Shown here piece by piece: positions 2,169-41,301 of a DNA stretch of 64,000 bases; within the stretch, counting starts at the first letter, position 1, and each line of letters starts with the position of its first letter. The position numbers and the translations under genes are program-made. The DNA is from a virus. The stretch spans positions 26,792-90,791 of IMG/VR virus record IMGVR_UViG_3300041405_000166. One strand, written 5' to 3'. The notes below the pieces were generated by a model. That model had not been told where the DNA came from, searched no databases, and saw nothing but the letters and a program-made list of their open reading frames with translations.

Positions 2169-3887
2169 ATGCCTGTTTTCTTTAATGGCCGGTTGTGGAT
2201 CTCTCCGGCAACCATGAGTGTGGTGGATGATTCCGCCATGTTCAACCGCGGCCTATCGGTCGCCAACGTGCAAGCCATCATCGGTCGATCGGTGGCCGGT
2301 AAACCGAATACCGCTCTGCGGTTTGGCAGCCCATCCGAGGCCCGTGCCGCTCTTCAGGGTGGCGAAGGCTTGAAGGCCATCGAAAAGGCGTTTGATCCGT
2401 CGTCCCAGACTGGTGCGGCATCGACGATCATTTTTGTTCGGGTCAACCCGGCTGTCCAAGCGACCTTGGACCTCAGCGACCTGACGCCGGTGACCGTGGT
2501 CAATCTCAAGTCGACCGACTATGGCCTGGTGGCAAACCAGGTGAAGTTCAAGATCGAGACGGCCACCAACCGCGGCATGAAGGTGTCGACTCAGCGCGGC
2601 GACGATTACTACACTCAGGACGACGTTCACCGCGACGCCTTCCAAGTGCAGTACATCGGTGCGGCAGCTACTGGCGTCATGTCCATCACCGGAACCTCGG
2701 TGGTGTTGCAAGCGCCAACTGGCACTACCGTCGCGACCATCGACCTGAACACCTACAAATCGGTTCAGGAGCTTGTTGATCGCATCAATGCGGTTACCGG
2801 CTTCAGTGCTTCGGTGCTAGATGGCAACGCCAACAAGCCAGCGCTGAATGGTCTGGATTACATCAGTGTCCAGGACATCAAAACTGCGGCCTACACTGCC
2901 CGTGCCGACCTCCAGGCCTTCGTTGATTACATCAACGGCACCGCTGAAGGGTTTGTCGATGCGGTCCGGGTAGCTGGTGTGGGTAGTCCGCCCGCGAACA
3001 TCAACTGGACCTACCTGTCCGGTGGTTCCGACGGTACCGTCACCAACCAGAACTGGTCGGATGCCTATGACGAAGTGCTGCAGGCTGAAGACGTGCAGTG
3101 GGTAACTCCGCTGAGCAGTGACCCAGCCATCCATGCGATGAACGACTCGCACTGCGCCTACATGTCGAACATCGCACGCATGGAGCGTCGCGGTACAGTC
3201 GGCACCGCTTTGGCCACCACGGATGATCTGGCGATTGCAGCGGCTAAGGCCCTGAATAGCGATCGCACCTCGCTGGTCCACCTCGGGTTCTACGATTACG
3301 ACGACGCCGGCACGCTGACGCTGTTCGAACCGTACATCCTGGCAGCCCAGATTGCTGGTGCGTTCTGCGGCAGCAACCCTGGCACCGCCATGACCAACAA
3401 GGCGCTGAAGGTTCGCGGCCTGGAACGCAAGTTGCGCAACCCAACCGACACTGATCGCCTGATCACCGGCGGCGTGTTGTGCGTCGAGGATGTCCCGACC
3501 GGCTTCAAGGTTGTGCAGTCGATCAGCACCTGGTTGATCAACGACAACTACAACCGAGTCGAGCAATCGGTCGGTGTGGCGCTGGACTTCACCGCTCGCA
3601 ACGTGCGTCAGGCGCTGGACGTGTTGCGCGGTGAGAAAGCCAACCCGATCACCATGGCTCGCGCCCGGACGATCGTGGAAAGCACGCTGCGCCAACTGGC
3701 CATGTCGGAGCCTCAAGGTCCGGGTGTGCTGGCCGGTGACGCCGAAAACCCGGCTTACAAAAACATCAAGGTGTCCATCGAGGGCGACGTCCTGCGCGTT
3801 GAGTTCCAGTGCAGCCCAGTCATTCCGGTGAACTACATTCCTGTCACCATCTTCGCGGTGCCGTTCAGCGGCAGCGCATCCGCGTAA
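2169..3887 (+). CDS. contractile tail sheath protein
   Basis: 572 aa; LSGGSDG motif; C-terminal ...PVIPVNYIPVT; followed by the tube gene. Confidence 0.9.
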   Translation: MPVFFNGRLWISPATMSVVDDSAMFNRGLSVANVQAIIGRSVAGKPNTALRFGSPSEARAALQGGEGLKAIEKAFDPSSQTGAASTIIFVRVNPAVQATLDLSDLTPVTVVNLKSTDYGLVANQVKFKIETATNRGMKVSTQRGDDYYTQDDVHRDAFQVQYIGAAATGVMSITGTSVVLQAPTGTTVATIDLNTYKSVQELVDRINAVTGFSASVLDGNANKPALNGLDYISVQDIKTAAYTARADLQAFVDYINGTAEGFVDAVRVAGVGSPPANINWTYLSGGSDGTVTNQNWSDAYDEVLQAEDVQWVTPLSSDPAIHAMNDSHCAYMSNIARMERRGTVGTALATTDDLAIAAAKALNSDRTSLVHLGFYDYDDAGTLTLFEPYILAAQIAGAFCGSNPGTAMTNKALKVRGLERKLRNPTDTDRLITGGVLCVEDVPTGFKVVQSISTWLINDNYNRVEQSVGVALDFTARNVRQALDVLRGEKANPITMARARTIVESTLRQLAMSEPQGPGVLAGDAENPAYKNIKVSIEGDVLRVEFQCSPVIPVNYIPVTIFAVPFSGSASA

Positions 3888-4794: not shown

Positions 4795-4996
4795 TCCTCG
4801 TTACCTTGAGCTGACGGCCGATCAAATCATGGCCGAATATTGGGCGCATCAGTACGCGGAGAAAGGCATTCAGGACGAAGTCGAGGATGAAGATTTCGAC
4901 ATGGCTGCTGAAGTGGCGCGCATCAACGCTGAAGCTGAGGCTGAAGTGGCAAACATTCCGCCTGACCAATGGGAGCTTATAGACCTTGAGCAATGA
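4694..4996 (+). CDS. tail assembly chaperone T-like segment (probably reached by frameshift)
   Basis: Overlapping +1 frame, WFRRKYNLPPNDPRY motif, ends at the tape measure start. Confidence 0.6.
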   Translation, partial: FVRNAEKQAKRLAKQMYQTMGFWFRRKYNLPPNDPRYLELTADQIMAEYWAHQYAEKGIQDEVEDEDFDMAAEVARINAEAEAEVANIPPDQWELIDLEQ

Positions 4997-7736
4997 CATT
5001 CGCATTGGCGTAAACGCCGACACCAGCAACACCACGTCTGGACTCTCGAGCGTCGAAACCGGTGCGAAAAAAGTCGTCGACAGGGTCAAGCAAATCGAGG
5101 AGGCGTCGACCAAGGCCGGCGTCAGCCTCAAACGGCTTGAGGCGATCGCGGCAACCTTGTCCAAGGAAATGGGCCGGGCGATCAATCCCAAGCAGGCCGA
5201 AGAGTTCCTGCGTAACTTCGAAAAGATCCGCACGAATAGGAACATCAGTGGTGGGTCGAAGATCCGACAGTTCGGCAGCTTTGAGGACTGGCATGCGCAG
5301 AATCACACGCTGTTCCTGAATCGTCGCGATGCAGAAAACTACAAGCGGCGAGTGTTCAACTTTGCCGGTGGTGGTTTGCCCCTGGGCGCTGGTGCTGCAC
5401 CGCCCCATTCCGCGAATCCGCATGTGGCGGCTAATACGCCTGGTTATGGTCGATCGCCTGCGTTTGGTGCTGCTGCCTCCTCAGGCATGAGCGGGTTGAA
5501 GATGGCTGCGGGTGCTGGCCTGGCCCTGGCCGGTATCACCAGCGTGATGGCGATGGCGGGGCGCGCGGTGGATCTGGCTCGCCAGGAGTCCACCAGCACG
5601 GACCAGTTGCTGCGCAGTGTCGGCGACTTGGATAAGACTTTCGATGATCTGCGCTCGCGGGTGCGCTCCTCGGGTGAGGGCCTTGGCGTCCTCTATACCG
5701 AGTCGGCGGCGCTGGCCAAGCAATACGCGAAAATCAACAATGGCGACGGCGGCGATATCGGCGGCAACGTCCGCACCGGCCTTGGGCTTGCGCGTGGTTA
5801 TGGTCTTGAGCTCGGCGAGGGTGTTGGGTTCATGGCCCAGGCGCGGCACTTCGGCCAGGTGGGATCGGATGACAAGGACGGTCGCAAGTTCGCCTTGATG
5901 ATCGCTGAGAGTATCGAGAAAGGCGGCAACACGGCCAAGGCCGGTGAAGTTCTGACGGCTGTCACCAACTTCAGCTCCCAGGTCGCCCGGTTAGCGCTGA
6001 CGGCTCCGAACGCGTCCGGGTTTGCCGGTGCGCTGGCTGGGCTTACATCGACGCATACGCCTGGCCTGGATCCGAACAACGCCGCTTCGATGCTGATGCA
6101 GGTGGATGGTGCGATTCGCCAGGGTGGCGGTATGGGTGAAGCCGGCTTGAACTTCACCTACGGCGCACTCTCCCGGGCAATGCCTGGGATTGATCCGATT
6201 ATGGCCAAGGCGGTCATGGAGCAAGGTGCTTTCGGCTCCGGGATCTCGCCTCAGGTCGCCGAGTACGCCAAGCGCAACGGCATCAAAACACCGAACTTCA
6301 GCGGTCAGGATAACCTGTCGTTGGTGATGGGTGAGATGGACAAGCAATACGGCAACAGCATGGCCAAGCTGGACGCGACCAAAAACTATTTTGGTTTGAA
6401 CAGCCTGTCGCAAGCCGCGGCAATTTCCAACATGGACCGCAAAAAACTCGGCGGCCTGCAGGGTCTGATCGGCAACGACATCAGCAAGCTGAGCGCGTCG
6501 GGCATCCAGAACGTGGCGCGGATCGGTTCGGCTGACGATGGCGAACTAAAATCGATTGCCGCGAAGTTGCTGAAGGACGATCGCCTGACCGACACCGAGA
6601 AAGGTTCGATCTCCAAGAACCTCGAAAGCGGCAACATGGACGACCTGCGCTCGACTATGGCCAAGGCTGTCGCCGTGCGCGAACAGGAAAAGAACATAGG
6701 CACCGAGACGCGTGACGCTGTCGCCGAGCTCAACAACACGCTGACCAAGATTGGCGGCCAGATTCTACCGGTCATCAGCGGGATTCAGGAAGGTGTGGTG
6801 GCGATGGCGATGGCGCTGTCGCCGACTTCTGATTACGCCAAAAAGATGAAATTGGAACAAGGCCTCGGCGTGTACCAGGCGCAGAAAGTCGACTTGGTGG
6901 CGGGGCATGGCCGGCAGATGGACCGGCTCGAGCAGAGTTTATCGGAGCGTGGGATTACTGGTCCGCGCCGTGAGCAGGCCATGAAAAACCTGAAGGACCT
7001 GCAGGCTGAAGAGCTCTACAAGTTCACGCGGGAAAACGGCGACTACGAAAAACTGATGCAGCAACAGTCAGCGTCTCCGGCCTCAGGTGGTGCAGCCTCT
7101 GACGCCAATGGCGCGATCGATCTTGGTCCTCTGGATGAAAGTGCTTCGGCGGATGGTGGGGCGCAAGTCGGCAAGGTGAAGTTCACTGCTGACGAACTGA
7201 AGACCTTGGAAAAGGCCGCTGGTGGTGATCCGCGCAAACTGAGCATGATGAAGCGTCTACTGGCCATCGAAAACCGCGGCTTCGGCAAGCTGAACTATTC
7301 AGCGAACAGTCCTAAAGGGGCGGCCGGTCCGTTCCAGATCATGCCGGATACTGGCGCGGCCTACGGGGTGAAGGATCCGAACAACCTGGAGGACGCGGCG
7401 GGTGGTATGTCGAAGTTTATCGACGATCTCGGCAAGCAGTACAACTGGAACGAACAAGCCATGATGGCCCACTACAACGGCGGCACCAAAGCCGGTAAAG
7501 CAGTGGCGGACGGTGGTCCAGCGCCTTACGCGGAAACACGGGATTACCTGGCCACCGCCGATGGCTTGACCGGGAATGTTCCCGCGGGTGGTTCTGCTGG
7601 TGGTGCCGAACCAGTGCGCGTTGAGCTGAGCTTAAATGGTACGCTGCACGGCAATGGTGGTCAGGACAAGGTCGGTGATATCGAACCTCAACAGACCACC
7701 TTCTCCTTACCGATGGCTGCCGGGGCGCGAAGATGA
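4986..7736 (+). CDS. tape measure protein with C-terminal SLT lytic transglycosylase domain
   Basis: 916 aa, Ala/Gly-rich helical; AIEN...GPFQIMP...AHYNGG...ETRDY SLT motifs. Confidence 0.9.
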   Translation: MSNDIRIGVNADTSNTTSGLSSVETGAKKVVDRVKQIEEASTKAGVSLKRLEAIAATLSKEMGRAINPKQAEEFLRNFEKIRTNRNISGGSKIRQFGSFEDWHAQNHTLFLNRRDAENYKRRVFNFAGGGLPLGAGAAPPHSANPHVAANTPGYGRSPAFGAAASSGMSGLKMAAGAGLALAGITSVMAMAGRAVDLARQESTSTDQLLRSVGDLDKTFDDLRSRVRSSGEGLGVLYTESAALAKQYAKINNGDGGDIGGNVRTGLGLARGYGLELGEGVGFMAQARHFGQVGSDDKDGRKFALMIAESIEKGGNTAKAGEVLTAVTNFSSQVARLALTAPNASGFAGALAGLTSTHTPGLDPNNAASMLMQVDGAIRQGGGMGEAGLNFTYGALSRAMPGIDPIMAKAVMEQGAFGSGISPQVAEYAKRNGIKTPNFSGQDNLSLVMGEMDKQYGNSMAKLDATKNYFGLNSLSQAAAISNMDRKKLGGLQGLIGNDISKLSASGIQNVARIGSADDGELKSIAAKLLKDDRLTDTEKGSISKNLESGNMDDLRSTMAKAVAVREQEKNIGTETRDAVAELNNTLTKIGGQILPVISGIQEGVVAMAMALSPTSDYAKKMKLEQGLGVYQAQKVDLVAGHGRQMDRLEQSLSERGITGPRREQAMKNLKDLQAEELYKFTRENGDYEKLMQQQSASPASGGAASDANGAIDLGPLDESASADGGAQVGKVKFTADELKTLEKAAGGDPRKLSMMKRLLAIENRGFGKLNYSANSPKGAAGPFQIMPDTGAAYGVKDPNNLEDAAGGMSKFIDDLGKQYNWNEQAMMAHYNGGTKAGKAVADGGPAPYAETRDYLATADGLTGNVPAGGSAGGAEPVRVELSLNGTLHGNGGQDKVGDIEPQQTTFSLPMAAGARR

Positions 7737-9337
7737 AAAATACCAGGACACCAATTCCGGTTCACGAACCACAAATCAGCGTGCTGCTGCTGAAGAACGT
7801 GGCGCGTGATTATGTCGCCGGTGGTGACGGGCTTGGCACTGAGGCGCCGGCTTCTGGTCGTTTCCAGGGCGTACAGAACCGAATCGATCTGACGCCATAC
7901 CTGGGCGAAGGTGGTGGTGTCCGGACGGCCAAGGGTGTCCGTGAGCCGGCGGGAAGCTTCACGGTGACGCTGGCGGACAAGATGTTCAATGGCGACAGCG
8001 CGCAGATGGAATCGTTGTACGGGCTCATTGAACCGATGGATGTCATTGAGATCCGTATGGCCCATGCGCCGACGAGCCCTGGAGTGGTCGTTGAATACCA
8101 GGGTCTGGCGGAACAGTTGCCAATCATCATGCGCGGCTTCGTCACGTCACCGCGCCGGGTCGAAAGCATAGATCCTAGTGGACGGCCTCAGCGCTCGATC
8201 ACTATCACGGGGATGGATTACGGCAAGCTGTGGCAGATTATTCAGATTCGCTACCTGGCCAACTACGTGTTGGGTCAGGAGCTGCTGACCACGCTGAAGT
8301 TTGCGCAGAACTACGGGGTCAACTCGAACGTCGATTTCACGCCCAATCAGTTCATTTATGAGGTGGTGCAGAGCGTGTTGAATTCGTTCACCACGAACAT
8401 GCGCACCAACTCGGGCATGGGCTTCGACGAGATGGGCGACAGCAATAGCCCGGTGCGTGACATCGAGGTTTTCGACCTGACGGTGCCGGATGCGCGCGTG
8501 TCGGCCTTCGGGGCGAACAGCTTCTCTGGCGGCACGCTGTACCAGATGCTCTGCCACTATGGCGACGTGGGTCCGTGGAACGAGTTGTACATGGAAGACC
8601 GTGAGGATGGCGTGGCGATCGTCTACCGCCCCAACCCGTTTTTCACGCCAGGCAATGACCTGGTGAATCCGCCGGCGGATCCCTACGAGCCGCCGGATGG
8701 CGAAGGCTTCGTGCAGGGCCTGGGCATCGTCACCATCGAGATCACCGATATCGACGTGATCAGTCTGAACACCGGGCGATCGGACGCGAATCTGGCCAAC
8801 TACTACTGGGTGGATAACCCGTCGTTCTCGCTGATCCAGGGCGAGACGCTGCGCCTGCAAGCAGCTGGGCTCAACCCTGAAACCTATTTCATCGAAAACT
8901 ACCGCAACAGTGCCCCCTGGCTGTATGGCTTGCGCATGATGCAGGTGCAGACCAATCAGGGTGGCCGCTTCGACTCGCAGAAAGAGCAGGAGCTGCTGGC
9001 CGGAAAAGGCGCATTGCAGTCCTGGTTAGATGAGCGCCGGGCGATCCTGGTGGCCAACAACCGGGACAACGTCGTGTTCGAGAACGGCCAGATGGTGCTC
9101 AAGGGTAACGAGCAGATCAAGGCCGGCATGTACCTGCGCCTGTGGCGGGGCAACATGTACGCTGATTACTACCTGACCCGGGTCGAGCATTCGTTTATGC
9201 CGTTCCGATCATTCATCACCACGGTGACGTTCGAGCGCGGTACCGGGTTCATCGAGCGGGCCAAACGTGGCAATGGGTTGCAGTCGCCGTATCTGGCGGA
9301 ACTGAATGGTGACGGTGTCTACAGGAGCGTCGAATGA
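7733..9337 (+). CDS. baseplate hub protein
   Basis: 534 aa after the tape measure; C-terminal YYLTRVEHSF...TTVTFERG typical of hub proteins. Confidence 0.7.
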   Translation: MKNTRTPIPVHEPQISVLLLKNVARDYVAGGDGLGTEAPASGRFQGVQNRIDLTPYLGEGGGVRTAKGVREPAGSFTVTLADKMFNGDSAQMESLYGLIEPMDVIEIRMAHAPTSPGVVVEYQGLAEQLPIIMRGFVTSPRRVESIDPSGRPQRSITITGMDYGKLWQIIQIRYLANYVLGQELLTTLKFAQNYGVNSNVDFTPNQFIYEVVQSVLNSFTTNMRTNSGMGFDEMGDSNSPVRDIEVFDLTVPDARVSAFGANSFSGGTLYQMLCHYGDVGPWNELYMEDREDGVAIVYRPNPFFTPGNDLVNPPADPYEPPDGEGFVQGLGIVTIEITDIDVISLNTGRSDANLANYYWVDNPSFSLIQGETLRLQAAGLNPETYFIENYRNSAPWLYGLRMMQVQTNQGGRFDSQKEQELLAGKGALQSWLDERRAILVANNRDNVVFENGQMVLKGNEQIKAGMYLRLWRGNMYADYYLTRVEHSFMPFRSFITTVTFERGTGFIERAKRGNGLQSPYLAELNGDGVYRSVE

Positions 9338-10113
9338 ACGGCAGCGGAATCAGTCTTGCGAAGGTCACTCGCGTGGTCCCTGGTGGCCATGCTGTCGACT
9401 TGCTGTTCATGGACACTGGCGATCGCGTACCAGCCGTGCAGGTGATGACCGGATATGCCAGTGGTGATACAGGTCTGGTTGACCTGGTGCAGCCAGACCA
9501 AGGCGAGGACCAGTGGGACCCGAGCCGTATTGGCGAGCGTGAGGTAATCGCCTGCGTCAGCTATTACAAAAACATCCCGGTGGTGATCGGCTTCCTGTTT
9601 CCTCAGGTCTGCCAAATGCTCTTCGATCGGCAGAACTTCAAGGTGGACCGGCACGCATCGGACGTTTACACGACGACCGATAATGACGGCAATCACGAGC
9701 TGTTCCATCCGTCCGGCACCTATCTGCGCATCGGCACGGCGCCAGCGCATGAGGACCTGACCGGGTTGGACTTCGACAAGAAGTGGGCGATCACTAAGAA
9801 CACCGACAAGGCCGTGCATGTGCATTTGTCGGTGCGCAATGCAGGCGCTGAGGTGGCCAGTCTGGATATCGATCCGGCGGGCAATGTCACCCTTGGGCAT
9901 TCCGGCAACTACACGCAGAACGTCGGTGGTGATTACGCGCTGATCGTGGCTGGAAACTCGTCCAAGAACGTGACCGGCTCGGAAACGCTCACGGCCGATA
10001 CAGTGCAGATCAACAGCACCACGCTCAAGCACAACACCAAAAACATCGGCGATACGCACACCCATGGTAGCGGTGCAGTGATCACGGGTATCACGCCGGT
10101 TCCAAACGCTTAG
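9334..10113 (+). CDS. baseplate spike (gpV-like)
   Basis: OB-fold-like N-terminus, beta-helix repeats, C-terminal HTH metal-binding motif (THTHG). Confidence 0.8.
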   Translation: MNGSGISLAKVTRVVPGGHAVDLLFMDTGDRVPAVQVMTGYASGDTGLVDLVQPDQGEDQWDPSRIGEREVIACVSYYKNIPVVIGFLFPQVCQMLFDRQNFKVDRHASDVYTTTDNDGNHELFHPSGTYLRIGTAPAHEDLTGLDFDKKWAITKNTDKAVHVHLSVRNAGAEVASLDIDPAGNVTLGHSGNYTQNVGGDYALIVAGNSSKNVTGSETLTADTVQINSTTLKHNTKNIGDTHTHGSGAVITGITPVPNA

Positions 10114-10790
10114 CGTATCTGCGCCTGCGGGATAAACCCCGGAACCACCTGGCCGCCCACCGGAGCCTCGACGGCATAAACCCTGTCGTTCGGCTCCCCC
10201 GTCACGGTGATCATGTCGCCGGCGAATACCGGAGCACAGCCATTCTCCTGGATCAACATCTTGGCCCCCAGCGAATCACCGGCATCAAGGCGCGACTGAT
10301 ACAGCTCGGCGGCGATCGCCTGGCGGCACATGAACACCGTTTTCGTCAGCACCGTGGCCGCCTGAGCAGGCATCAGGTCAGGTGCTGGGGTCAACATCGG
10401 GGTCATGAAGTAGCCATCAATAACCTGGTCGTTGACGTTGCGCATCAGGCCGCGGGTGGTGTCGCCTTGGACGTCGGTCACCACCACCACAAACCCTTTG
10501 GGTGCCTTGCCGCAATTGCCAGCTCGAACCGTGGATAGATAGCCAGGGTAATCCTCGGCCATGATGCGCGCCTTGGCGGCCATGGTGATCTGCGCATCAG
10601 GGCAGTAGAAGGTATCGCGGGCAACACGATACGCCTCGACATCATCTGCGGCCTGGGCCGGGGTGATCATGCTCACCAGGGCGAAGGCGAACAGCAACGC
10701 GCCAGCGATGGCGAAGGGCGTTGTGAGAATCGTCCAGGCCCGCTGACGGCGAGCTTCGAGGACAGTGTTGCGAGTGGCCTGGGATTTCAT
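10110..10790 (-). CDS. exported/membrane-anchored protein with two Cys-pair repeats
   Basis: Hydrophobic segment ending in AQA-A; FYC..GNC and FMC..NGC repeats. Confidence 0.65.
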   Translation of the reverse strand: MKSQATRNTVLEARRQRAWTILTTPFAIAGALLFAFALVSMITPAQAADDVEAYRVARDTFYCPDAQITMAAKARIMAEDYPGYLSTVRAGNCGKAPKGFVVVVTDVQGDTTRGLMRNVNDQVIDGYFMTPMLTPAPDLMPAQAATVLTKTVFMCRQAIAAELYQSRLDAGDSLGAKMLIQENGCAPVFAGDMITVTGEPNDRVYAVEAPVGGQVVPGFIPQAQIR

Positions 10791-10850
10791 GATGCGTTAC
10801 CTCTTCAGGTGTGTGGTCTTCGTGGTGGACGGGTTAGATTTTCAAGCAGC

Positions 10851-11696
10851 CTATGCTGGTACTGCCGAGTCTGCAGATTCCTCGTCATCAGTCGTGCCAG
10901 ACAGAAACCCCATGATGATCGGGGCGACCGTGGTGGCCTTGGTCACCAGGAACAAATGCCCGTCGTCGATGACGTGCAAGGTGGCGTCAGGGATCAGTGC
11001 GGCGATCAGGCGCATATTGACCAGTGGGATGATCGGATCATCATTGCCAGCCAGCACCAGTGTTGGCTGCTTGATCCGGCGCAGCCAATGCAGACTGGTC
11101 CAGAACCAAACGGCCATTCCTTGGTAGGCATAACCGCGGCCACCAGTGGATTGCATCTTGGCGGCGTGGCTAGCGGCCAGCGCCTTGTCGTGGCGGAAAA
11201 CTCCACCGTAGATTTCCGGTGCGATTTTGGCGCCGTACTCGGGGTCGGTATAACGTCGCGGGCTGGACATCAGCGCCAAGACTTTCGGGGACGGCATGAC
11301 GCTCAGGATTCCAGTCGAAGTCGCCGCGAGAATCAGTTTTGTGCAGCGCTGCGGGTAATCATTGGCGAATTGCTGAGCCAGGAAACCGCCCCACGAAACA
11401 CCAATGACATTGACTTGGTCGTATGCCAGGCAATCCAGCATCTTGGCCACGGTCTTGGCCAGGCCGCTGAACGTGTAAGGCAGGCGTGGCGTGGATGAGC
11501 CACCTACGCCTGGCACGTCGAAGGCAATCACTTCCTGATCATGATCCAGGGCCTGCACGAACGGGATCACCAGCTCAAGGCTGGCACCGATGCCGTTGAG
11601 CACCAGCAGCGGGGTGAGGTTTGGATTGCCTGGGCGCACCGCTGTTCTGATGGACTGGCCATCGACCATGACAGTGCGGAAAACAAATTCTTTCAT
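10851..11696 (-). CDS. phaZ: poly(3-hydroxyalkanoate) depolymerase, Pseudomonas intracellular mcl-PHA type
   Basis: FRTV..DGQSIRTAVRPG, NGIGA oxyanion motif, FDVPGVGGS, GVSWG lipase box, GNDDP and DGHLF triad residues; colinear with Pseudomonas PhaZ. Confidence 0.93.
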   Translation of the reverse strand: MKEFVFRTVMVDGQSIRTAVRPGNPNLTPLLVLNGIGASLELVIPFVQALDHDQEVIAFDVPGVGGSSTPRLPYTFSGLAKTVAKMLDCLAYDQVNVIGVSWGGFLAQQFANDYPQRCTKLILAATSTGILSVMPSPKVLALMSSPRRYTDPEYGAKIAPEIYGGVFRHDKALAASHAAKMQSTGGRGYAYQGMAVWFWTSLHWLRRIKQPTLVLAGNDDPIIPLVNMRLIAALIPDATLHVIDDGHLFLVTKATTVAPIIMGFLSGTTDDEESADSAVPA

Positions 11697-11742
11697 CTCT
11701 GTTGCTCCATGCTGCTCGGCGTGCCGGGCGTTTCGGGTTTTT

Positions 11743-11772
11743 GTGCTGGCGAAGCCCGCACTGGGCGGGCTT
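11743..11772 (-). repeat. hairpin + TTCGCCAGYAC leader element, copy 1
   Basis: On - strand AAGCCCGC-CCAGT-GCGGGCTT-CGCCAGCAC upstream of phaZ. Confidence 0.6.
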
Positions 11773-11776
11773 GCTG

Positions 11777-11932
11777 TTATTGATCGCTGCGGCGGCGACC
11801 TTTGTTTTGGCGTTTCAGTTGAGCGCCATCAAGGTCATCGGCGCTGGAATACCAGACCAATAGTCCAGTCCCGACAATAGCGAGGATGATGACGAGCGCC
11901 AAAATAAGCAGCGGGATTATTTGGTCAAGCAT
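11777..11932 (-). CDS. 51-aa single-pass membrane protein (not in ORF track)
   Basis: MLDQIIPLLILALVIILAIVGTGLLVWYSS...RRRSDQ*, AAGGAG RBS. Confidence 0.7.
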   Translation of the reverse strand: MLDQIIPLLILALVIILAIVGTGLLVWYSSADDLDGAQLKRQNKGRRRSDQ

Positions 11933-11959
11933 GGCGACTCCTTGGGTTGGGCTTCCTTG

Positions 11960-11988
11960 GTACTGGCGAAGCCCCGATTAAGGGGCTT
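11960..11988 (-). repeat. hairpin + TTCGCCAGYAC leader element, copy 2
   Basis: On - strand AAGCCCC-TTAATC-GGGGCTT-CGCCAGTAC. Confidence 0.6.
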
Positions 11989-12005
11989 AAGGTGGTCGGG
12001 GTTGG

Positions 12006-12260
12006 TTATGCCGGGAAAAAGGCGGTGCCGCGTGTGATCGTGTAATGAACCTCGAAGGTGCCGTCTGAGTGCAGCGCTACAAGGCGATGCGGCGCACCGT
12101 TCTTATAAAGGTTCGCTTGCTCTTCCAAAGCGGCCAAGCCTTGCACACGGTTACGCGGTTTGATGTCGTCTTTTTGCAGCCATTCGGCGTGCTTGCTGGC
12201 CTCTTCAATGTTGGACCAGTTGCCGCCAAAAACTTGTTGAATCTGGATGCGGTATTTCAT
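12006..12260 (-). CDS. hypothetical protein
   Basis: 84 aa, GGAG RBS. Confidence 0.65.
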   Translation of the reverse strand: MKYRIQIQQVFGGNWSNIEEASKHAEWLQKDDIKPRNRVQGLAALEEQANLYKNGAPHRLVALHSDGTFEVHYTITRGTAFFPA

Positions 12261-12274
12261 CGCGTCTTGCTCCG

Positions 12275-12502
12275 TTACTTTGTGCGTTTGTTGAACAGTG
12301 CGGTCGCCGCTTCGAGCGTCATTTGCTGCTCGACGTAGCGCCAGGTTTTCACGTCACGGCCTGCGACGTAGTTGACGCAGAGCTTCCACACGCCATAACC
12401 AGCATCCTCGCCCCAATGGTTGGTCGACTTCATCAGTGCGAAAGTCGATTTGCCAGACTTGTTGGCCTTGACGGAGATCTTGGTGTGGGCGGCTTTGGTC
12501 AT
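12275..12502 (-). CDS. hypothetical protein
   Basis: Starts MTKAAH after a GGAG RBS; first gene behind the sigma70 promoter. Confidence 0.65.
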   Translation of the reverse strand: MTKAAHTKISVKANKSGKSTFALMKSTNHWGEDAGYGVWKLCVNYVAGRDVKTWRYVEQQMTLEAATALFNKRTK

Positions 12503-12540
12503 GGCGGTGGCTCCGTGTTGTTCGTCTTGGCTACAACTTA

Positions 12541-12569
12541 AATATATCCATAGCTGCACATCTTTGCAA
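12541..12569 (-). promoter_or_regulatory. sigma70-type promoter of the phaZ cassette
   Basis: TTGCAA-17 nt-TATATT on the - strand. Confidence 0.7.
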
Positions 12570-12598
12570 CTACAGATACAAAGTAATTTCACCGCTTG

Positions 12599-12619
12599 TC
12601 GTGACAGCACCATCCTGTC
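12599..12619 (+). promoter_or_regulatory. putative late promoter, leaderless
   Basis: TCGTGAC-AGCACCAT-CCTGTC-ATG(12620). Confidence 0.75.
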
Positions 12620-13783
12620 ATGAGCACACCATCGTCCCAGAAATCAGACGTCCGCCCGATCAGCTTCCTGCTCCAGGACCTGAGCAACGGCAACGACCTG
12701 ACCAGCGTCCCACTGAACATCCGCCCAGCTGATCTGACGCGGGTCGAGCCGTCGCGCGCCTCGGTGCAGCAGACCCTCGGCGGGGCCTGGCTGGATAACT
12801 GGGGGCCCGGCATTCGCCAGGTGAACATCAACGGGCATACCGGCTGGCGTGGCAGCAACTATGAGGACGGCATGGAGCTGTTCCGGACGCTGAACAACAC
12901 CGTATTCAAGAGCTGGCACGAGAAACGGCGCCTGGCGATCAGTGCCGGCCGGGATCCTGAGTTGATTCAGCTGATCTTCGCCGACCTGCTCGATGACTTC
13001 GTGTACGTGGTTGCCCCGATGAACTTCACGCTGCGCCGGAGCAAGCAGAGCCCGCTGCTGATGCAATACCAGATCAGCATGCTGGTGCTGTCTGAGGACT
13101 TGGTCGACCTGAAGAACAAGCTACGTCCGCCAGCGATCTTGCCGGGTGACATCGCGGTACCTGAGGCGCTGAAAACCCTGAGGGAGATCCTTGGACGAAT
13201 CCGCAACTTTGCCACCAGCGTGGGTAACTTCATCAACGGCACCATTGGTGCAGCCGTCCGATCGTTCATGAACCTGACGGCCGATGTCCTGGCGGTGACG
13301 GTCGAGACGATCAGTTCGCTCAAAGGTTCGTTTGATGAGGTTGCCGGTCCGCTGCTGTCGGTAGCCACCGACCTGGCCCAGGCCGGGCGCAACATCATGT
13401 GCACCGTCGCCACCGTGCAATCGCTGGGGACCTTCGTCAAATCCAGGATCATGGAAATCAGCGGGGCCTTCACCTACGCCTTGTGCCTGCTGAAAAACGC
13501 TTTTGGTGGCGGCAAGAAATACCCGGACTATTCCGACTGGTACGGCGCGAGCAACTGTTCGTCCATCTCAGGTGGTCGTCCGCTGTCGCCGCTGCGCTTC
13601 GAAAACCCGTTCTACAAACTGACGCCGAGTCCGAGCACGCCGATCACCCAGACACCAGAAGCGCGCAATTCCATGAAGCTGCTGGTAGGCATGGATGTGT
13701 TATCGACCACGCCGACCATGGACATGGAGTCGAATATCCGCTCGGTGAATGACGGCACGGCTGTCGTTGAGGCTATCGCATGA
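12620..13783 (+). CDS. tail tube initiator/baseplate-associated protein
   Basis: 387 aa; VQQTLGGAWLDNWG...INGHTGW motif; position in operon. Confidence 0.6.
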   Translation: MSTPSSQKSDVRPISFLLQDLSNGNDLTSVPLNIRPADLTRVEPSRASVQQTLGGAWLDNWGPGIRQVNINGHTGWRGSNYEDGMELFRTLNNTVFKSWHEKRRLAISAGRDPELIQLIFADLLDDFVYVVAPMNFTLRRSKQSPLLMQYQISMLVLSEDLVDLKNKLRPPAILPGDIAVPEALKTLREILGRIRNFATSVGNFINGTIGAAVRSFMNLTADVLAVTVETISSLKGSFDEVAGPLLSVATDLAQAGRNIMCTVATVQSLGTFVKSRIMEISGAFTYALCLLKNAFGGGKKYPDYSDWYGASNCSSISGGRPLSPLRFENPFYKLTPSPSTPITQTPEARNSMKLLVGMDVLSTTPTMDMESNIRSVNDGTAVVEAIA

Positions 13784-37042: not shown

Positions 37043-37527
37043 GCGAGAAAGCAGTAGTAATTGATCTGGATGCGATCGAGAAGGCGGCGAAGGCGGCACT
37101 GCAAGAGCCGGTGTCTACGGCGTTCCTGGTGAAGACGAACGATGAACTGAATGCCTGGATGGGTTCGTTCTACGCGGACGATGCCGAGACTGATGCTTAC
37201 CGGCTCCATTCCTTGTGGGCCTGGCAGGAACAGGAGCGGCGCCGTGCGCCCGTGGTGCTTGAGCTGATCCGCCGGCTGCGCGCTGCCGAAGCACTCGCCG
37301 CATCACGGATCGAGCAGATTCCGGTCGATACTCGCGTACTGGCCATCTTCGCCGACATAAAACCGGAGCACATCGCCTACGCTGAGGAATTCACCCGGCT
37401 GATCCAGCGGCGCACCAGTAGCTGGACTCTGGTTGCCTATTTCAATACTGACGCCCATATCGAAGCGCTGGATATCGAAACCATGCGTACCCGTGGGTGG
37501 ATCCGTGCACCGAGGACTGATGAATGA
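37039..37527 (+). CDS. hypothetical protein (Ea22-like motifs)
   Basis: IDLDAIE..AKAA...PVVLELI.RL. Confidence 0.55.
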   Translation: MSEKAVVIDLDAIEKAAKAALQEPVSTAFLVKTNDELNAWMGSFYADDAETDAYRLHSLWAWQEQERRRAPVVLELIRRLRAAEALAASRIEQIPVDTRVLAIFADIKPEHIAYAEEFTRLIQRRTSSWTLVAYFNTDAHIEALDIETMRTRGWIRAPRTDE

Positions 37528-37955
37528 ACGACTTCCTGCCGATCGAACAATGGTTTTCGACCTGGCCCACCGCCCGGGCCGACATTGAGCCACTGGTGCC
37601 TGATCGCCCCGTGTTCATCCGGTCGTCCAGCGTTCGCAATATGATCGAACTGGATCAGACCTGGGCACTTCAGATGCTGGCCTTGGCTCCTGATGAGGAG
37701 TCGTTCGGTATTCTGCAGGCGCGGATCCTCTGGCTGGGCACTGTTAATGCCGCCGTGTTGCATGCCTGTCGTCTGGATCAATACCATGGGCAGCCGCTCA
37801 ATGACTGCACGCTGGCCATGATCAATGACAGCGTCCAGCGCCAGGACGCATTCCGTCAATCGGCGCGGATGCCAACCTTTAAAGAACTGGCGCTCGAAGC
37901 ACTCGGTTTGTGCCCGTCCGTCAAAACCTTCGATTTTGTCTACACGGTGCAATAG
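37524..37955 (+). CDS. hypothetical protein
   Basis: ATGA-coupled, GAGG RBS. Confidence 0.55.
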   Translation: MNDFLPIEQWFSTWPTARADIEPLVPDRPVFIRSSSVRNMIELDQTWALQMLALAPDEESFGILQARILWLGTVNAAVLHACRLDQYHGQPLNDCTLAMINDSVQRQDAFRQSARMPTFKELALEALGLCPSVKTFDFVYTVQ

Positions 37956-37957
37956 CG

Positions 37958-38365
37958 ATGACCCTCTCTAATGATGCAATCAAACGGATCGCCCTCTGGG
38001 CACTGAGCGGTACCACTGGCGTGTCGGCATCGACGATCGCCTGTGTGGCAATGGGGGTTAAGGAAAACAATCGTGTTTCCTTCGACTGCCCGCATGACGC
38101 GGATGACTTCGGCCGCTGCCACCGCCTGTTGGGTCTGGTGCCGGAGCTGTTGGAGTATCTCCCTGCGGTGATCGAGGCCTGTCCTCAGTGGGCGCCGCTG
38201 GTGCCGATCTGGCATGAGCTGACCGCTCTCTATATAGAGGATCCTGCGCGATGTAATTACCGCATGCGTGACGTGCGTGACAACTGCCGCAAGGCCGGTG
38301 GCTGGCATAAAATAGGGTCCGGTGTTTGGGTACGCACTCGTCCACTCCCGCCAGGTGCAGAATGA
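37958..38365 (+). CDS. conserved phage hypothetical protein
   Basis: TGVSA.TI...P.DADDFGRC.RLL..VPE. Confidence 0.65.
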   Translation: MTLSNDAIKRIALWALSGTTGVSASTIACVAMGVKENNRVSFDCPHDADDFGRCHRLLGLVPELLEYLPAVIEACPQWAPLVPIWHELTALYIEDPARCNYRMRDVRDNCRKAGGWHKIGSGVWVRTRPLPPGAE

Positions 38366-38607
38366 GCATTATCACCAACCTGAACCATATTCGCCGCGAC
38401 CTGAAAGCCCGCGGCATCACCGAACAGCACGTCTATGCCATTCCACTGGCCGAGGTCGACGCTGCGGCACTGGAGATCTACAAATGCCTGTCAACCAATC
38501 CAAAGCAGGTCAGGTTTTCTCAATCCCAGATTCGCCAGGGAATCATGAATGGAAGCCTAACCCTTTTGGGCTCCCGGATTACCGTTGCCCAGATCATGCA
38601 CGACTGA
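38362..38607 (+). CDS. hypothetical protein
   Basis: Coupled ORF. Confidence 0.5.
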   Translation: MSIITNLNHIRRDLKARGITEQHVYAIPLAEVDAAALEIYKCLSTNPKQVRFSQSQIRQGIMNGSLTLLGSRITVAQIMHD

Positions 38608-38857
38608 CCACCTACTTCGTGCAGCGCGATCGCTACCAGAATTATTGGGTGTGCGGCCTGTATCGCAAAGGTGATGAGCGCCGCGCCGAGTCCTACGTGG
38701 TATCGCTACAAGAAATCGCCACTGCGAACTATCCGCGCCATCTGGTGGAGCATGCCATCAAGGCAGTGGACGACGCCCTGGCGCGCTGGATCAATCAGCC
38801 GCTGTACCTCTGATACGAAAGCCCGGGTGACACCGGGCGATTTTTGAGAATGGACCC

Positions 38858-39580
38858 ATGGAATCAGTGAAGAAAAAACGCGACATGGATTATTGCTCGT
38901 ATGACCTGGGCGGGTTTGTTGGGACCCTTCCTGAGCACGCGGCGCGTCAGGGCTTGTCCGCTTCGACCGTGCGTTCGCGCAAAAAACGCGGGTGGAAACT
39001 GTCGGAAGCACTCGGCTATGTGAAACGCACCGGGCCGGACAATCCATCGATTCTGGTCGCGCCACGTCGCCTGGCCATCGAGATGAAATACGAAAAGCTG
39101 TTCGACGAAGTCCTGGCGGACCTGCAGGCCGAAGGCTTGTCGATCTGCGCAGCGGCGAAACGGCTCGACTATGATGAGCGCGCCCTGTATCGCTACCTGG
39201 CCAAGCGGCCAACCGATAACCCATGGTCGGAGACCACCTATTCGCCGGTGGCGGTGCGCTTCAAGAAAGCCAGCGGCATGACCATTGCTCAGTGGCTGGA
39301 GCTGCACGCGGCGAAGTACTCGCTGACGCAGGCGGCTTCCTTCCTTGGGTATTCGTCGATCACCACAATGCGCTCCTACCTGGTGGCCAATGGGTTGAAA
39401 CCGACGTTCCGCAAGCAGGGCAAGCACGCCGAGCACCGCGGCGCTATGCGCAACCTGACCGACCATGCAGCAGCAGCGGGCATCCCGATCGGGACCATCA
39501 GCGCCAGGATGCACCGCGGCATGACGTTGCACCAAGCATTGACCACTCCCGTTGCCAGGCCCAGGAGGAAAGCCCAATGA
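38858..39580 (+). CDS. multi-HTH DNA-binding protein
   Basis: Repeated TL.EHA...G....TV.SR..RGW.L..AL units plus two internal HTH-like segments. Confidence 0.7.
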   Translation: MESVKKKRDMDYCSYDLGGFVGTLPEHAARQGLSASTVRSRKKRGWKLSEALGYVKRTGPDNPSILVAPRRLAIEMKYEKLFDEVLADLQAEGLSICAAAKRLDYDERALYRYLAKRPTDNPWSETTYSPVAVRFKKASGMTIAQWLELHAAKYSLTQAASFLGYSSITTMRSYLVANGLKPTFRKQGKHAEHRGAMRNLTDHAAAAGIPIGTISARMHRGMTLHQALTTPVARPRRKAQ

Positions 39581-39957
39581 CCGTATCTGAAGACATCGCA
39601 GCGGCGCGAGCCCAGTACGAAGTCGCCCGCGCAGCCAAGACCGGTGAAGCCACCAACTGTCCGACCTGCAAGGTGCTGCTGATCAAGTCCAACTATCAGC
39701 AGGTGTTCTGTTCGAACTCGGGGGCGGGTAACTGCAAGGATCATTACTGGAACCTGTTGGCGCAGCGCAACCCACTGGTGCCGAAGGCGAAGCGGACCGC
39801 CCACGAGCATATGACGCGACAGCTGATCAAGCTGCGGCCTTTGGTGGTGGCGGCGATGACTGAGGATTCAACCAACGATGAGCAGGTCGATGGCCGTTGG
39901 GCGCAACTGCAAAAGCTGCTCGAGCGCGTCGAGGAGGTGATCAATGATCCTCGCTGA
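39577..39957 (+). CDS. zinc-finger protein
   Basis: CPTC...QVFC......CKD.YWN; GGAGG RBS. Confidence 0.65.
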   Translation: MTVSEDIAAARAQYEVARAAKTGEATNCPTCKVLLIKSNYQQVFCSNSGAGNCKDHYWNLLAQRNPLVPKAKRTAHEHMTRQLIKLRPLVVAAMTEDSTNDEQVDGRWAQLQKLLERVEEVINDPR

Positions 39958-40291
39958 TCCGATGAAGGTCGCCGATGAGTGCTGGGCCGGGCGGTTGCCG
40001 GTCCGTGACTTCCCGCCGGAGTGCAAGCGTGCGGCCTGGCGCCTGGTCGCCGACAAGGTTTGGCGGGCCGCGCGGGACATCCTGAAGAATGAGAAGGTGT
40101 TCCGGTTGCGGGCGCTGCGGGAGGGATACCACGAAGAGTTTCACGAGCTGATCAAAGCGGAGATGAAAATGCTGCACAGTTCGGGGTGGCAGTGGGAGAG
40201 GGATGAAAACAATCGCAAGCACTGGATACAGAAGGGTTTGGACCTGGCCTGCTCCCCCCCGCCCCCCGGGCCGGCTCCCGATCCATCGTGA
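39944..40291 (+). CDS. hypothetical protein
   Basis: GAGGAGG RBS, 115 aa. Confidence 0.6.
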   Translation: MILADPMKVADECWAGRLPVRDFPPECKRAAWRLVADKVWRAARDILKNEKVFRLRALREGYHEEFHELIKAEMKMLHSSGWQWERDENNRKHWIQKGLDLACSPPPPGPAPDPS

Positions 40292-40306
40292 CGCTATGCT
40301 GTCACC

Positions 40307-40368
40307 ACGTTGGCTGGAACGCCTCGACCCGCAACACCTTAACCGCCTTCCCCAGGGCGGTTTTTTTT
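40307..40368 (+). ncRNA. candidate ~60-nt small RNA
   Basis: TCGTGAC-GC-TATGCT promoter motif at 40286-40300, no ORF, CCGCC/GGCGG-T8 terminator. Confidence 0.45.
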
Positions 40369-40371
40369 GGC

Positions 40372-41301
40372 CTATGAAACGCGGGTGACCGTCGCGTCGT
40401 TGCCGGCGGCGACAACCTTGAACTTCTTCCCGTTGCGGATCCCGTAGCTGTAAATGATGCTGCGCAACAGGGACATAGAGGTAAAATCGGCTTTCGGGAT
40501 CAGCACGGACTGGTCGACGTCGATCAGGTGATAAGCCTTCGGAGCCAGCTTGCCAGGCTCATTATCCGCGCTGTTCTTCTTTTTGGTGATGGTCTGTTTT
40601 GCCAGTAACTTGGACAGCTCGCCGGCTTCACGGGGGTTGAGCTGGGTTGGCTTGAGCGCGCGCAGCGTGAGTTTCAACCCCTCATAAGTGGCAGTCACCC
40701 GTGCGATGGTGGCCCGCTCCTTCTGCCACTCTTTGGCGAAGTGGAACACGTTCTGGATGGCGTCGACGTCGCGCAGCTTGAAGAAGTACACCTTGCCCGA
40801 TTCCATGGCGTCGAGCTGCTCATAGGTCCAGGCTTTCATATGGTCGTAATAGGTGCCGAGCGGGACCTTGTACATCATCTGGAACGTGCCGTGGTGGTCC
40901 CTTTCGGTACGGGCCACCACTTCACCGCCGAAGGCTACCGGGTCCTTCCAGCAGGATTTTCTGAGCATGTCGGCCACCTGGAAGTCACCCATCACCCTGA
41001 CTTTTGTCCATGGTTTGATCGATCGTGGATCGGTCGTGCCACCCATTTCGACAGATGGTTGATCCTCGAACGGGCCCTGGTCGAAAACTGAATGGGGACA
41101 TTCGAAGACCTTTTCGGGCTTTTCGGCGTTTGGATTTTGCGGTCTGAACATGAGTGCGGCCTTTTTTGGCGAAGTCGACGTATACATTTTCGTGCTCCAA
41201 AATTGTAGATGAGGATGCTGGGCCTGTATATGCTCCTTGGCCTTTTTCGCCCCGCGGACCCCGAAAATCGATGGAAAACCCGGTAGATTTTGGTCTGTCA
41301 T
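40372..41301 (-). CDS. hypothetical basic protein next to the origin-like region
   Basis: 309-aa solitary - strand ORF. Confidence 0.65.
   Translation of the reverse strand: MTDQNLPGFPSIFGVRGAKKAKEHIQAQHPHLQFWSTKMYTSTSPKKAALMFRPQNPNAEKPEKVFECPHSVFDQGPFEDQPSVEMGGTTDPRSIKPWTKVRVMGDFQVADMLRKSCWKDPVAFGGEVVARTERDHHGTFQMMYKVPLGTYYDHMKAWTYEQLDAMESGKVYFFKLRDVDAIQNVFHFAKEWQKERATIARVTATYEGLKLTLRALKPTQLNPREAGELSKLLAKQTITKKKNSADNEPGKLAPKAYHLIDVDQSVLIPKADFTSMSLLRSIIYSYGIRNGKKFKVVAAGNDATVTRVS

Follow-up and report, generated by a model that had tools for sequence, protein, structure and literature searches.

A Predicted Medium-Chain-Length Polyhydroxyalkanoate Depolymerase Encoded in the Tail Module of an Uncultured Myovirus

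Polyhydroxyalkanoates (PHAs) can make up a large share of dry mass in Pseudomonas and its relatives in soil, rhizosphere, and wastewater. They are the chief store that these bacteria draw on when nutrients run short, which is also when phage replication is most energy-starved. In Pseudomonas, the intracellular depolymerase gene phaZ normally lies between phaC1 and phaC2. The closest described enzyme, PhaZKT of P. putida KT2440/KT2442, has the catalytic triad Ser102/Asp221/His248 and a helical lid over the active site (residues 133-192), and the breakdown inside cells of medium-chain-length PHA (mcl-PHA) was described in the same 2025 paper as apparently Pseudomonas-specific (PMC12504323). Here we report a phaZ gene in a 64,000-nucleotide stretch of viral DNA (the window), corresponding to bases 26792-90791 of the 90,791-bp IMG/VR virus record IMGVR_UViG_3300041405_000166. 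A sequence-only reading of this stretch had proposed that the gene lets a phage break down the carbon and energy store of its host. Our analysis points the same way, and we put at roughly 60% the probability that the phage PhaZ mobilizes host mcl-PHA granules, with the released 3-hydroxy acids feeding host beta-oxidation during infection.

The gene is as follows:

10851-11696, minus strand: phaZ, encoding a 281-aa alpha/beta-hydrolase of the TIGR02240 family (triad Ser101/Asp220/His247; lid at about residues 125-211)

The protein scores 424.4 bits against TIGR02240 (PHA_depoly_arom, an NCBIfam equivalog model with a cut-off of 250.6) over profile positions 2-264 of 276, and also matches Pfam Abhydrolase_1. 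It is full-length and carries all three catalytic motifs that had been read from the sequence, namely GVSWG (Ser101), GNDDP (Asp219/220), and DGHLF (His247). Its alignment with a P. putida PhaZ (67% identity) is gap-free over 265 residues with a numbering offset of -1, so that Ser101/Asp220/His247 correspond to Ser102/Asp221/His248 of PhaZKT. From residue 2 onwards, the N-terminus (MKEFVFRTV...) can be aligned with that of P. putida PhaZ, a cytoplasmic enzyme; it has no hydrophobic leader and, as previously noted, no signal peptide. The LNGIG loop at residues 33-37 corresponds to FNGIG at 34-38 of PhaZKT; Phe34 is replaced by Leu, and Asn34 is kept, the counterpart of an asparagine (Asn35) that is essential in PhaZKT (PMC12504323). 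Across 195 unique sequences, 45 of them viral and 150 chromosomal, the triad is 100% conserved and the oxyanion-loop Asn-Gly and Trp102 are invariant. A GGAG sequence stands 8 nt ahead of the phaZ ATG. Judged by these sequence features, phaZ is an intact phage-encoded member of the intracellular mcl-PHA depolymerase PhaZ family.

The 90.8-kb record, rated 100% complete by CheckV and carrying direct terminal repeats, is a complete tailed-phage (myovirus) genome. Considered as an auxiliary metabolic gene (AMG), phaZ has phage genes on both sides, and its nearest cellular relatives among the matches listed are Pseudomonas PhaZ proteins at 65-71% identity. Because the genome was assembled from an uncultured metagenome, one could suppose that host DNA was mis-assembled or mis-binned into a viral contig. 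We find this scarcely credible: phage genes lie tight on both sides, the cassette partners of phaZ are conserved in three sister contigs, and about 50 other viral contigs encode a gene of this type. Moreover, identity to any cellular PhaZ among the matches listed is at most 71%, no phaC is present anywhere in the 90.8-kb genome (the sequence-only reading had likewise seen none), and composition equals that of the phage, with a GC content at third codon positions (GC3) of 0.70 vs. 0.71-0.80 for the neighbors and an overall GC that is likewise equal to that of neighboring phage genes.

A survey of phage databases and a phylogeny against chromosomal PhaZ had been suggested along with the original reading, and both are now available. 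The best database matches to the window PhaZ are metagenome proteins at 70-76% identity, none with a named organism; named Pseudomonas PhaZ proteins follow from about 69% downwards, and 76% is the maximum identity to anything else found. The metagenomes were scanned with an alignment of the top matches as query (a single-protein query returned none). The cellular sample comprised at least 78 metagenome loci and at least 80 species-representative loci, of which those listed are all from Pseudomonas or Metapseudomonas (64-71% identity), and phaC adjoins phaZ in 158 of 158 cellular or metagenomic loci among the matches listed. In a scan of IMG/VR, again with the alignment of top matches as query, 49 viral contigs proved to encode relatives of PhaZ (55-75% identity); these contigs range from 5 kb to 307 kb, and several are complete with terminal repeats. 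ORF269 of the Ralstonia jumbo phages RP12/RP31 was the sole homolog in 50,697 deposited phage records. At none of approximately 54 viral loci was a phaC found within 10 kb, and the tail genes of the phage described here, like the cassette genes other than phaZ, are missing from all of them. Ten representative viral copies, including that of RP12, exceed the TIGR02240 cut-off.

By shared neighbors, the viral phaZ loci form 11 context groups, in which phaZ is accompanied by siphovirus head and tail genes, RIIA, tail fibers, a DNA repair exonuclease, or jumbo-phage virion proteins. In a siphovirus group of 21 loci, phaZ lies on the opposite strand between head and neck genes, and in another context it stands beside Erf/exonuclease recombination genes and a diversity-generating retroelement (DGR) accessory gene. 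In the group with the closest PhaZ (L006/L167:4969-5903; 75%), phaZ is downstream of a DGR Avd-like gene, an HNH/reverse transcriptase-like gene, and two Lcl_C-type variable-protein candidates, and a DNA methyltransferase gene comes after it. Three of the contigs with PhaZ relatives are of jumbo-phage size (L196, L197, and L199; 307, 228, and 283 kb, respectively). Proteins of their subclade are also encoded on 223-229 kb contigs in several samples, which suggests that the latter are complete genomes of one jumbo phage type.

Exactly one PhaZ copy, at most 71% identical to that of the window, was found in 226 of 401 sampled Pseudomonadaceae genomes, and a second, phage-type copy in 0 of 401. 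Homologs (42-50% identity) turned up in just three more genomes when 400 other Gammaproteobacteria were sampled. The absence of cellular members from the phage clade rests on samples, and is supported by the 401-genome result together with the lack of a named organism among the matches at 70-76%. In both the quick tree (117 rows) and the careful tree (47 rows), chromosomal sequences were split from viral ones (plus unnamed metagenome sequences) in 100% of bootstrap trees, and viral terminal branches were several-fold longer than chromosomal ones. The outgroup L219 (42% identity, branch length 5.3) was placed within the viral clade by the quick tree, which we treated as long-branch noise; L219 and RP12 were left out of the careful tree. 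Support for the root was weak (86/31), and consequently neither the date of the transfer nor its direction, from an early Pseudomonas to phages or the reverse, is fixed by these trees.

The GC content of viral phaZ genes ranges from 41 to 62% and follows that of their own loci (r = 0.95, mean difference 0.008), and that of chromosomal phaZ from 56 to 71%. The median pairwise ratio of nonsynonymous to synonymous substitution rates (dN/dS, Nei-Gojobori) was 0.091 among viral pairs (n = 274) and 0.077 among chromosomal ones; by this measure, viral phaZ is under purifying selection. The long residence in phages that had been suspected therefore gains support from the phage-only clade, the identity of at most 76% to anything found, the phage-like composition, and the signature of selection. 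Taken together, these data identify phaZ as a probable member of an old phage-only lineage, with no sign of recent capture from a host.

The immediate surroundings of phaZ comprise the following features:

9334-10113, plus strand: 259-aa spike-like baseplate protein with a C-terminal THTHG motif (upstream flank)
10110-10790, minus strand: 226-aa open reading frame (ORF), conserved cassette member, with an N-terminal signal or anchor and a cleavage-like sequence (...ITPAQA/ADD)
10791-11777: phage-specific 987-bp segment (phaZ plus spacers), replacing 237 bp of the sister phage G800
11752-11772: GC-rich hairpin AAGCCCGC...GCGGGCTT, a perfect 8-bp hairpin lying 6 bp within the upstream edge of the phaZ segment
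11777-11932, minus strand: 51-aa single-pass membrane ORF, conserved in G800
12006-12260, minus strand: 84-aa ORF with no assigned function, coding-like in its ribosome-binding site and GC3
12275-12502, minus strand: first ORF of the cassette, 75 aa if counted from Met38 (112 aa if counted from 12613)
12541-12569, minus strand: sigma-70-like promoter match TTGCAA-17-TATATT, in a divergent intergenic region common to G800
12620-13783, plus strand: 387-aa tail-tube initiator/baseplate protein (PF23980, phrog_1011; downstream flank)

The placement between a spike gene and the next baseplate gene, given in the sequence-only reading, is correct. The same reading had described a self-contained five-gene cassette on the opposite strand. 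Five minus-strand ORFs do fill 10110-12613 (226 aa, PhaZ, 51 aa, 84 aa, and 112 aa), all of them with a GGAG-like ribosome-binding site and a GC3 exceeding the GC content at second positions, but they are not a single unit, as phaZ is a separate insert and sister cassettes lack it. This is apparent from comparison with G800, a complete IMG/VR sister phage of 85,776 bp with terminal repeats (L249-L253), whose sheath is 89% identical to that of the phage described here and most of whose structural proteins are 75-97% identical. G800 has an opposite-strand cassette at the same site, with homologs of the 226-aa ORF (77% identity, as also in the sister contigs L255/L256) and of the 51-aa membrane ORF (155 bp at 68% DNA identity; the G800 homolog has 52 aa). 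At the position of phaZ it has 237 bp with a 59-aa ORF and no phaZ. Blastn homology to G800 stops exactly at 10791 and picks up again at 11778, which indicates that phaZ is a 987-bp single-gene insert in an older, variable cassette.

G800 does encode phaZ, at a different locus (39132-40043 in G800), about 25 kb off and co-oriented with its neighbors; the protein is 74% identical to that of the window. An approximately unbiased (AU) test did not reject the window and G800 proteins as sisters (p = 0.138), and relocation and separate acquisition are thus both possible. The window region matching the G800 phaZ locus (approximately 37500-40400) contains unrelated small ORFs, and both sites are variable islands. 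In two closer sister contigs (L255 and L256), whose tail proteins are 83-96% identical to those of this phage, the 226-aa gene has approximately 750 bp beside it and phaZ is absent there; both contigs are incomplete, and the genomes they come from could have phaZ at some other place. New here are the comparison with sister phages, the precise limits of the insert, and the observation that close relatives have phaZ at other loci or lack it at this site. That a sister phage has kept phaZ again at another locus counts in favor of PHA mobilization.

An opposite-strand layout with its own promoter is also typical of morons, and could mean that phaZ is expressed from a prophage as an extra depolymerase that benefits the lysogen in starvation. 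The opposite-strand phaZ of the 21-locus siphovirus group and the phaZ group beside Erf/exonuclease recombination genes are compatible with such a role. However, we consider it highly improbable for this phage, given that no tyrosine integrase was found in the whole genome, that terminal repeats are present, and that none of the 401 Pseudomonadaceae genomes had a second copy of the phage type.

If phaZ does act on host granules, the following course of events can be envisaged. After injection, host RNA polymerase would start at the promoter-like site (12569-12541) and transcribe the cassette leftwards, and the cytoplasmic enzyme would dock on host mcl-PHA granules via its helical lid. Ser101-Asp220-His247 would then cleave the polyester to (R)-3-hydroxyalkanoic acids, which the host would activate and burn through beta-oxidation. 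Because the phage copy would be uncoupled from host pha regulation and from PhaC, it would tip the cycle of synthesis and degradation to net breakdown. Phage replication in cells short of nutrients would thereby gain carbon, reducing power, and ATP. In this scheme, family membership is the basis for the enzymology. The timing of expression is read from a promoter match that is weak and from the position of the cassette on the opposite strand of a late operon, and the benefit to the phage from the many phages that have kept the gene, along with the precedent of Bdellovibrio (PMC4834554). Overall, the data suggest that phages may tap the host PHA store during infection.

The points that weigh against granule mobilization concern the enzyme itself, its expression, the fate of its products, and the identity of the host. 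The AlphaFold2 model of PhaZ (mean predicted local distance difference test score 78, predicted template modeling score 0.82) has a standard alpha/beta-hydrolase core, with lid helices at residues 137-205 between strands at 118-124 and 212-217. Substitutions in the lid region relative to the chromosomal enzyme, noted in the sequence-only reading, are evident in the alignments: the window PhaZ departs most from the chromosomal consensus at residues 121-160, at 181-200, and in the C-terminal tail, which is unrelated to that of the chromosomal enzyme. At 181-200, 8 of 20 residues match the consensus, in a stretch that is 95% conserved among chromosomal copies. The hinge reads YAYQGM, compared with YYWQLF (residues 190-195) in PhaZKT, equal in length with four of six residues changed, and five differences are near-fixed between the viral and chromosomal clades: N39S, A105F beside the nucleophile, G135P and K136S at the lid entry, and V181M near the hinge. 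In PhaZKT, deletion of the hinge abolishes activity, and the S184F substitution near the hinge moves activity from PHA towards soluble esters (PMC12504323). The substrate of the phage PhaZ may, on the strength of the latter variant, differ from PHA.

Taken further, the altered hinge and the near-fixed A105F, G135P, K136S, and V181M could mean that the PhaZ fold and triad have been kept while a remodeled lid and acyl pocket act on another ester, with a benefit unrelated to PHA; acyl-homoserine lactones (AHLs), lipids, and acylated envelope or storage compounds are candidate substrates. The S184F hinge variant of PhaZKT, which gains esterase and loses PHA activity (PMC12504323), would fit such a change. 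The nearest solved folds are generic esterases (6eb3, TM-score 0.79) and an AHL-degrading esterase, with no deposited structure of the PhaZ family found in the fold comparison, and a family member occurs in a Ralstonia phage. Nevertheless, we regard a retargeted esterase, the leading alternative to granule mobilization, as unlikely. All tested viral representatives pass an equivalog model built on PHA depolymerases, and PhaZKT is reported to be highly substrate-specific (PMC12504323). Pseudomonas PhaZ is most closely related to the phage clade, the remaining cellular homologs being only 42-50% identical, and selection on the lid is strong. In the phage clade, dN/dS was 0.04 for the lid (window residues 125-211) vs. 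0.11 for the core, the reverse of chromosomal PhaZ (0.12 for the lid vs. 0.075 for the core), the pairs in these comparisons being non-independent. The slower change of the lid in the phage clade therefore argues for a lid that is different but constrained, not decaying.

The remaining points lie outside the protein. Ralstonia, the host of RP12, produces short-chain polyhydroxybutyrate (PHB) and is not known to produce mcl-PHA, and the nearest cultured relatives of the phage described here infect Bordetella as well as P. putida. The TTGCAA-17-TATATT site named in the sequence-only reading was found at 12569-12541 on the minus strand; it occurs once in the window and matches only 9 of 12 consensus positions. 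Furthermore, no AMP-binding acyl-CoA synthetase and no other PHA genes were found in the whole genome. Such a phage, without genes for monomer use, might gain from depolymerization in another way, by removing bulky granules or freeing PhaF and other proteins from them, and so easing assembly, replication, or lysis. Granules can occupy much of a Pseudomonas cell, and the phasin PhaF binds DNA. The retention of phaZ by very different phages, jumbo phages included, would also fit. This explanation needs the same enzymatic activity as granule mobilization and is compatible with it; taken as the benefit in its own right, we judge it improbable.

With respect to the rest of the cassette, the four ORFs other than phaZ had no match in Pfam, NCBIfam, or PHROGs. 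The 226-aa protein may, from its N-terminus, be secreted or periplasmic; it has 10 homologs among 5.8 billion proteins, none of them named, and a resemblance to Sap1 (protein atlas score 0.90, 164 shared features) was within the range of chance. The 84-aa ORF had no family match and no homolog in G800. The first cassette ORF most likely begins at Met38 (12502), giving 75 aa instead of 112, since the 112-aa form would begin upstream of the promoter-like site; a GGAG precedes Met38. A promoter scan of the region gave three sites vs. 1.2 expected from shuffles, a weak excess, and the region 12496-12700 is 84% identical to G800. The hairpin at 11752-11772 is doubtful as a terminator because no T-run follows it on the minus strand; it may be what is left of one, or a landmark of recombination.

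The cassette interrupts a myovirus tail module that further includes:

2169-3887, plus strand: sheath
plus strand, listed between the sheath and the tape-measure-like gene: tube
4986-7736, plus strand: 916-aa tape-measure-like protein with a lytic transglycosylase domain
plus strand, listed between the tape-measure-like gene and the 259-aa gene: 534-aa protein

The tail genes flanking phaZ are syntenic with those of Bordetella phage PHB04, P. putida phage Dolphis, and G800, and in PHB04 and Dolphis the two flanking genes directly adjoin. The 387-aa protein is 45% identical to PHB04 gp005 and 40% identical to Dolphis gp25, and further baseplate genes follow it on the plus strand. The 259-aa protein, 83% identical to its sister-phage counterparts, had no Pfam or PHROG match; its features in the protein atlas, which serves as a lead, are close to the Phage_base_V, Gp5_C, and Phage_spike/Apex clusters (0.94-0.95). 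Its end (...GDTHTHGSG) recalls the His-x-His metal-binding apex of central spike proteins. Zero tRNAs were found in the window.

Beyond this phage, we tentatively propose, at somewhat short of even odds, that breakdown of storage polyester is a general and old phage strategy. In this proposal, a PhaZ clade with a remodeled hinge would have traveled as a single-gene module among myo-, sipho-, and jumbo phages with at least 11 unrelated backbones, being re-acquired or relocated even between sisters and possibly acting as a deregulated override of the PhaC/PhaZ cycle. No description of phage-encoded mcl-PHA depolymerases was found in the searchable literature. If the proposal is true, intracellular mcl-PHA degradation would no longer be Pseudomonas-specific, and a widespread phage depolymerase lineage would add a storage-polymer route to phage reprogramming of host metabolism. 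Carbon turnover in PHA-rich communities would be affected, and phage infection could destroy the product in industrial PHA fermentations. All designed lid changes in PhaZKT killed its activity (PMC12504323), so the phage enzymes, as a natural library of lid variants of a hard-to-engineer enzyme, may be relevant to bioplastic recycling. P. putida pha mutants and the cultured phage RP12, with its distant homolog, are existing means of testing the idea.

Comparison with known systems places the window PhaZ closest to PhaZKT, with which it shares the TIGR02240 family, the triad, the NGIG loop with its essential Asn (PMC12504323), and, from sequence and model, the lid-bearing alpha/beta-hydrolase architecture and cytoplasmic form. 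Unlike PhaZKT, it is encoded by a phage, lacks phaC1, phaC2, and phaD as neighbors, and belongs to a separate, fast-evolving phage clade. ORF269 of RP12/RP31 is similarly alone among phage genes and passes TIGR02240 (291 bits vs. 250.6), but its identity is only 49%, its branch belongs neither to the Pseudomonas clade nor to the main viral one, and it comes from a 280-kb jumbo phage of Ralstonia. The RP12 protein (L166:3971-4786) is deposited as "hypothetical protein" or "esterase/lipase." A PHB depolymerase gene in a Gloeobacter prophage has likewise been proposed as a phage-associated, PHA-degrading AMG for carbon utilization (2026 preprint, PMC13317609); that enzyme acts on short-chain PHB, and the report concerns a single cyanobacterial prophage without clade analysis. 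PhaZBd of Bdellovibrio bacteriovorus HD100 is an extracellular-type, lidless enzyme of another family, and its owner is a bacterial predator rather than a virus. Nonetheless, it shows an intracellular parasite degrading the mcl-PHA of its Pseudomonas victim with its own depolymerase (PMC4834554), which is what we propose for the phage enzyme here.

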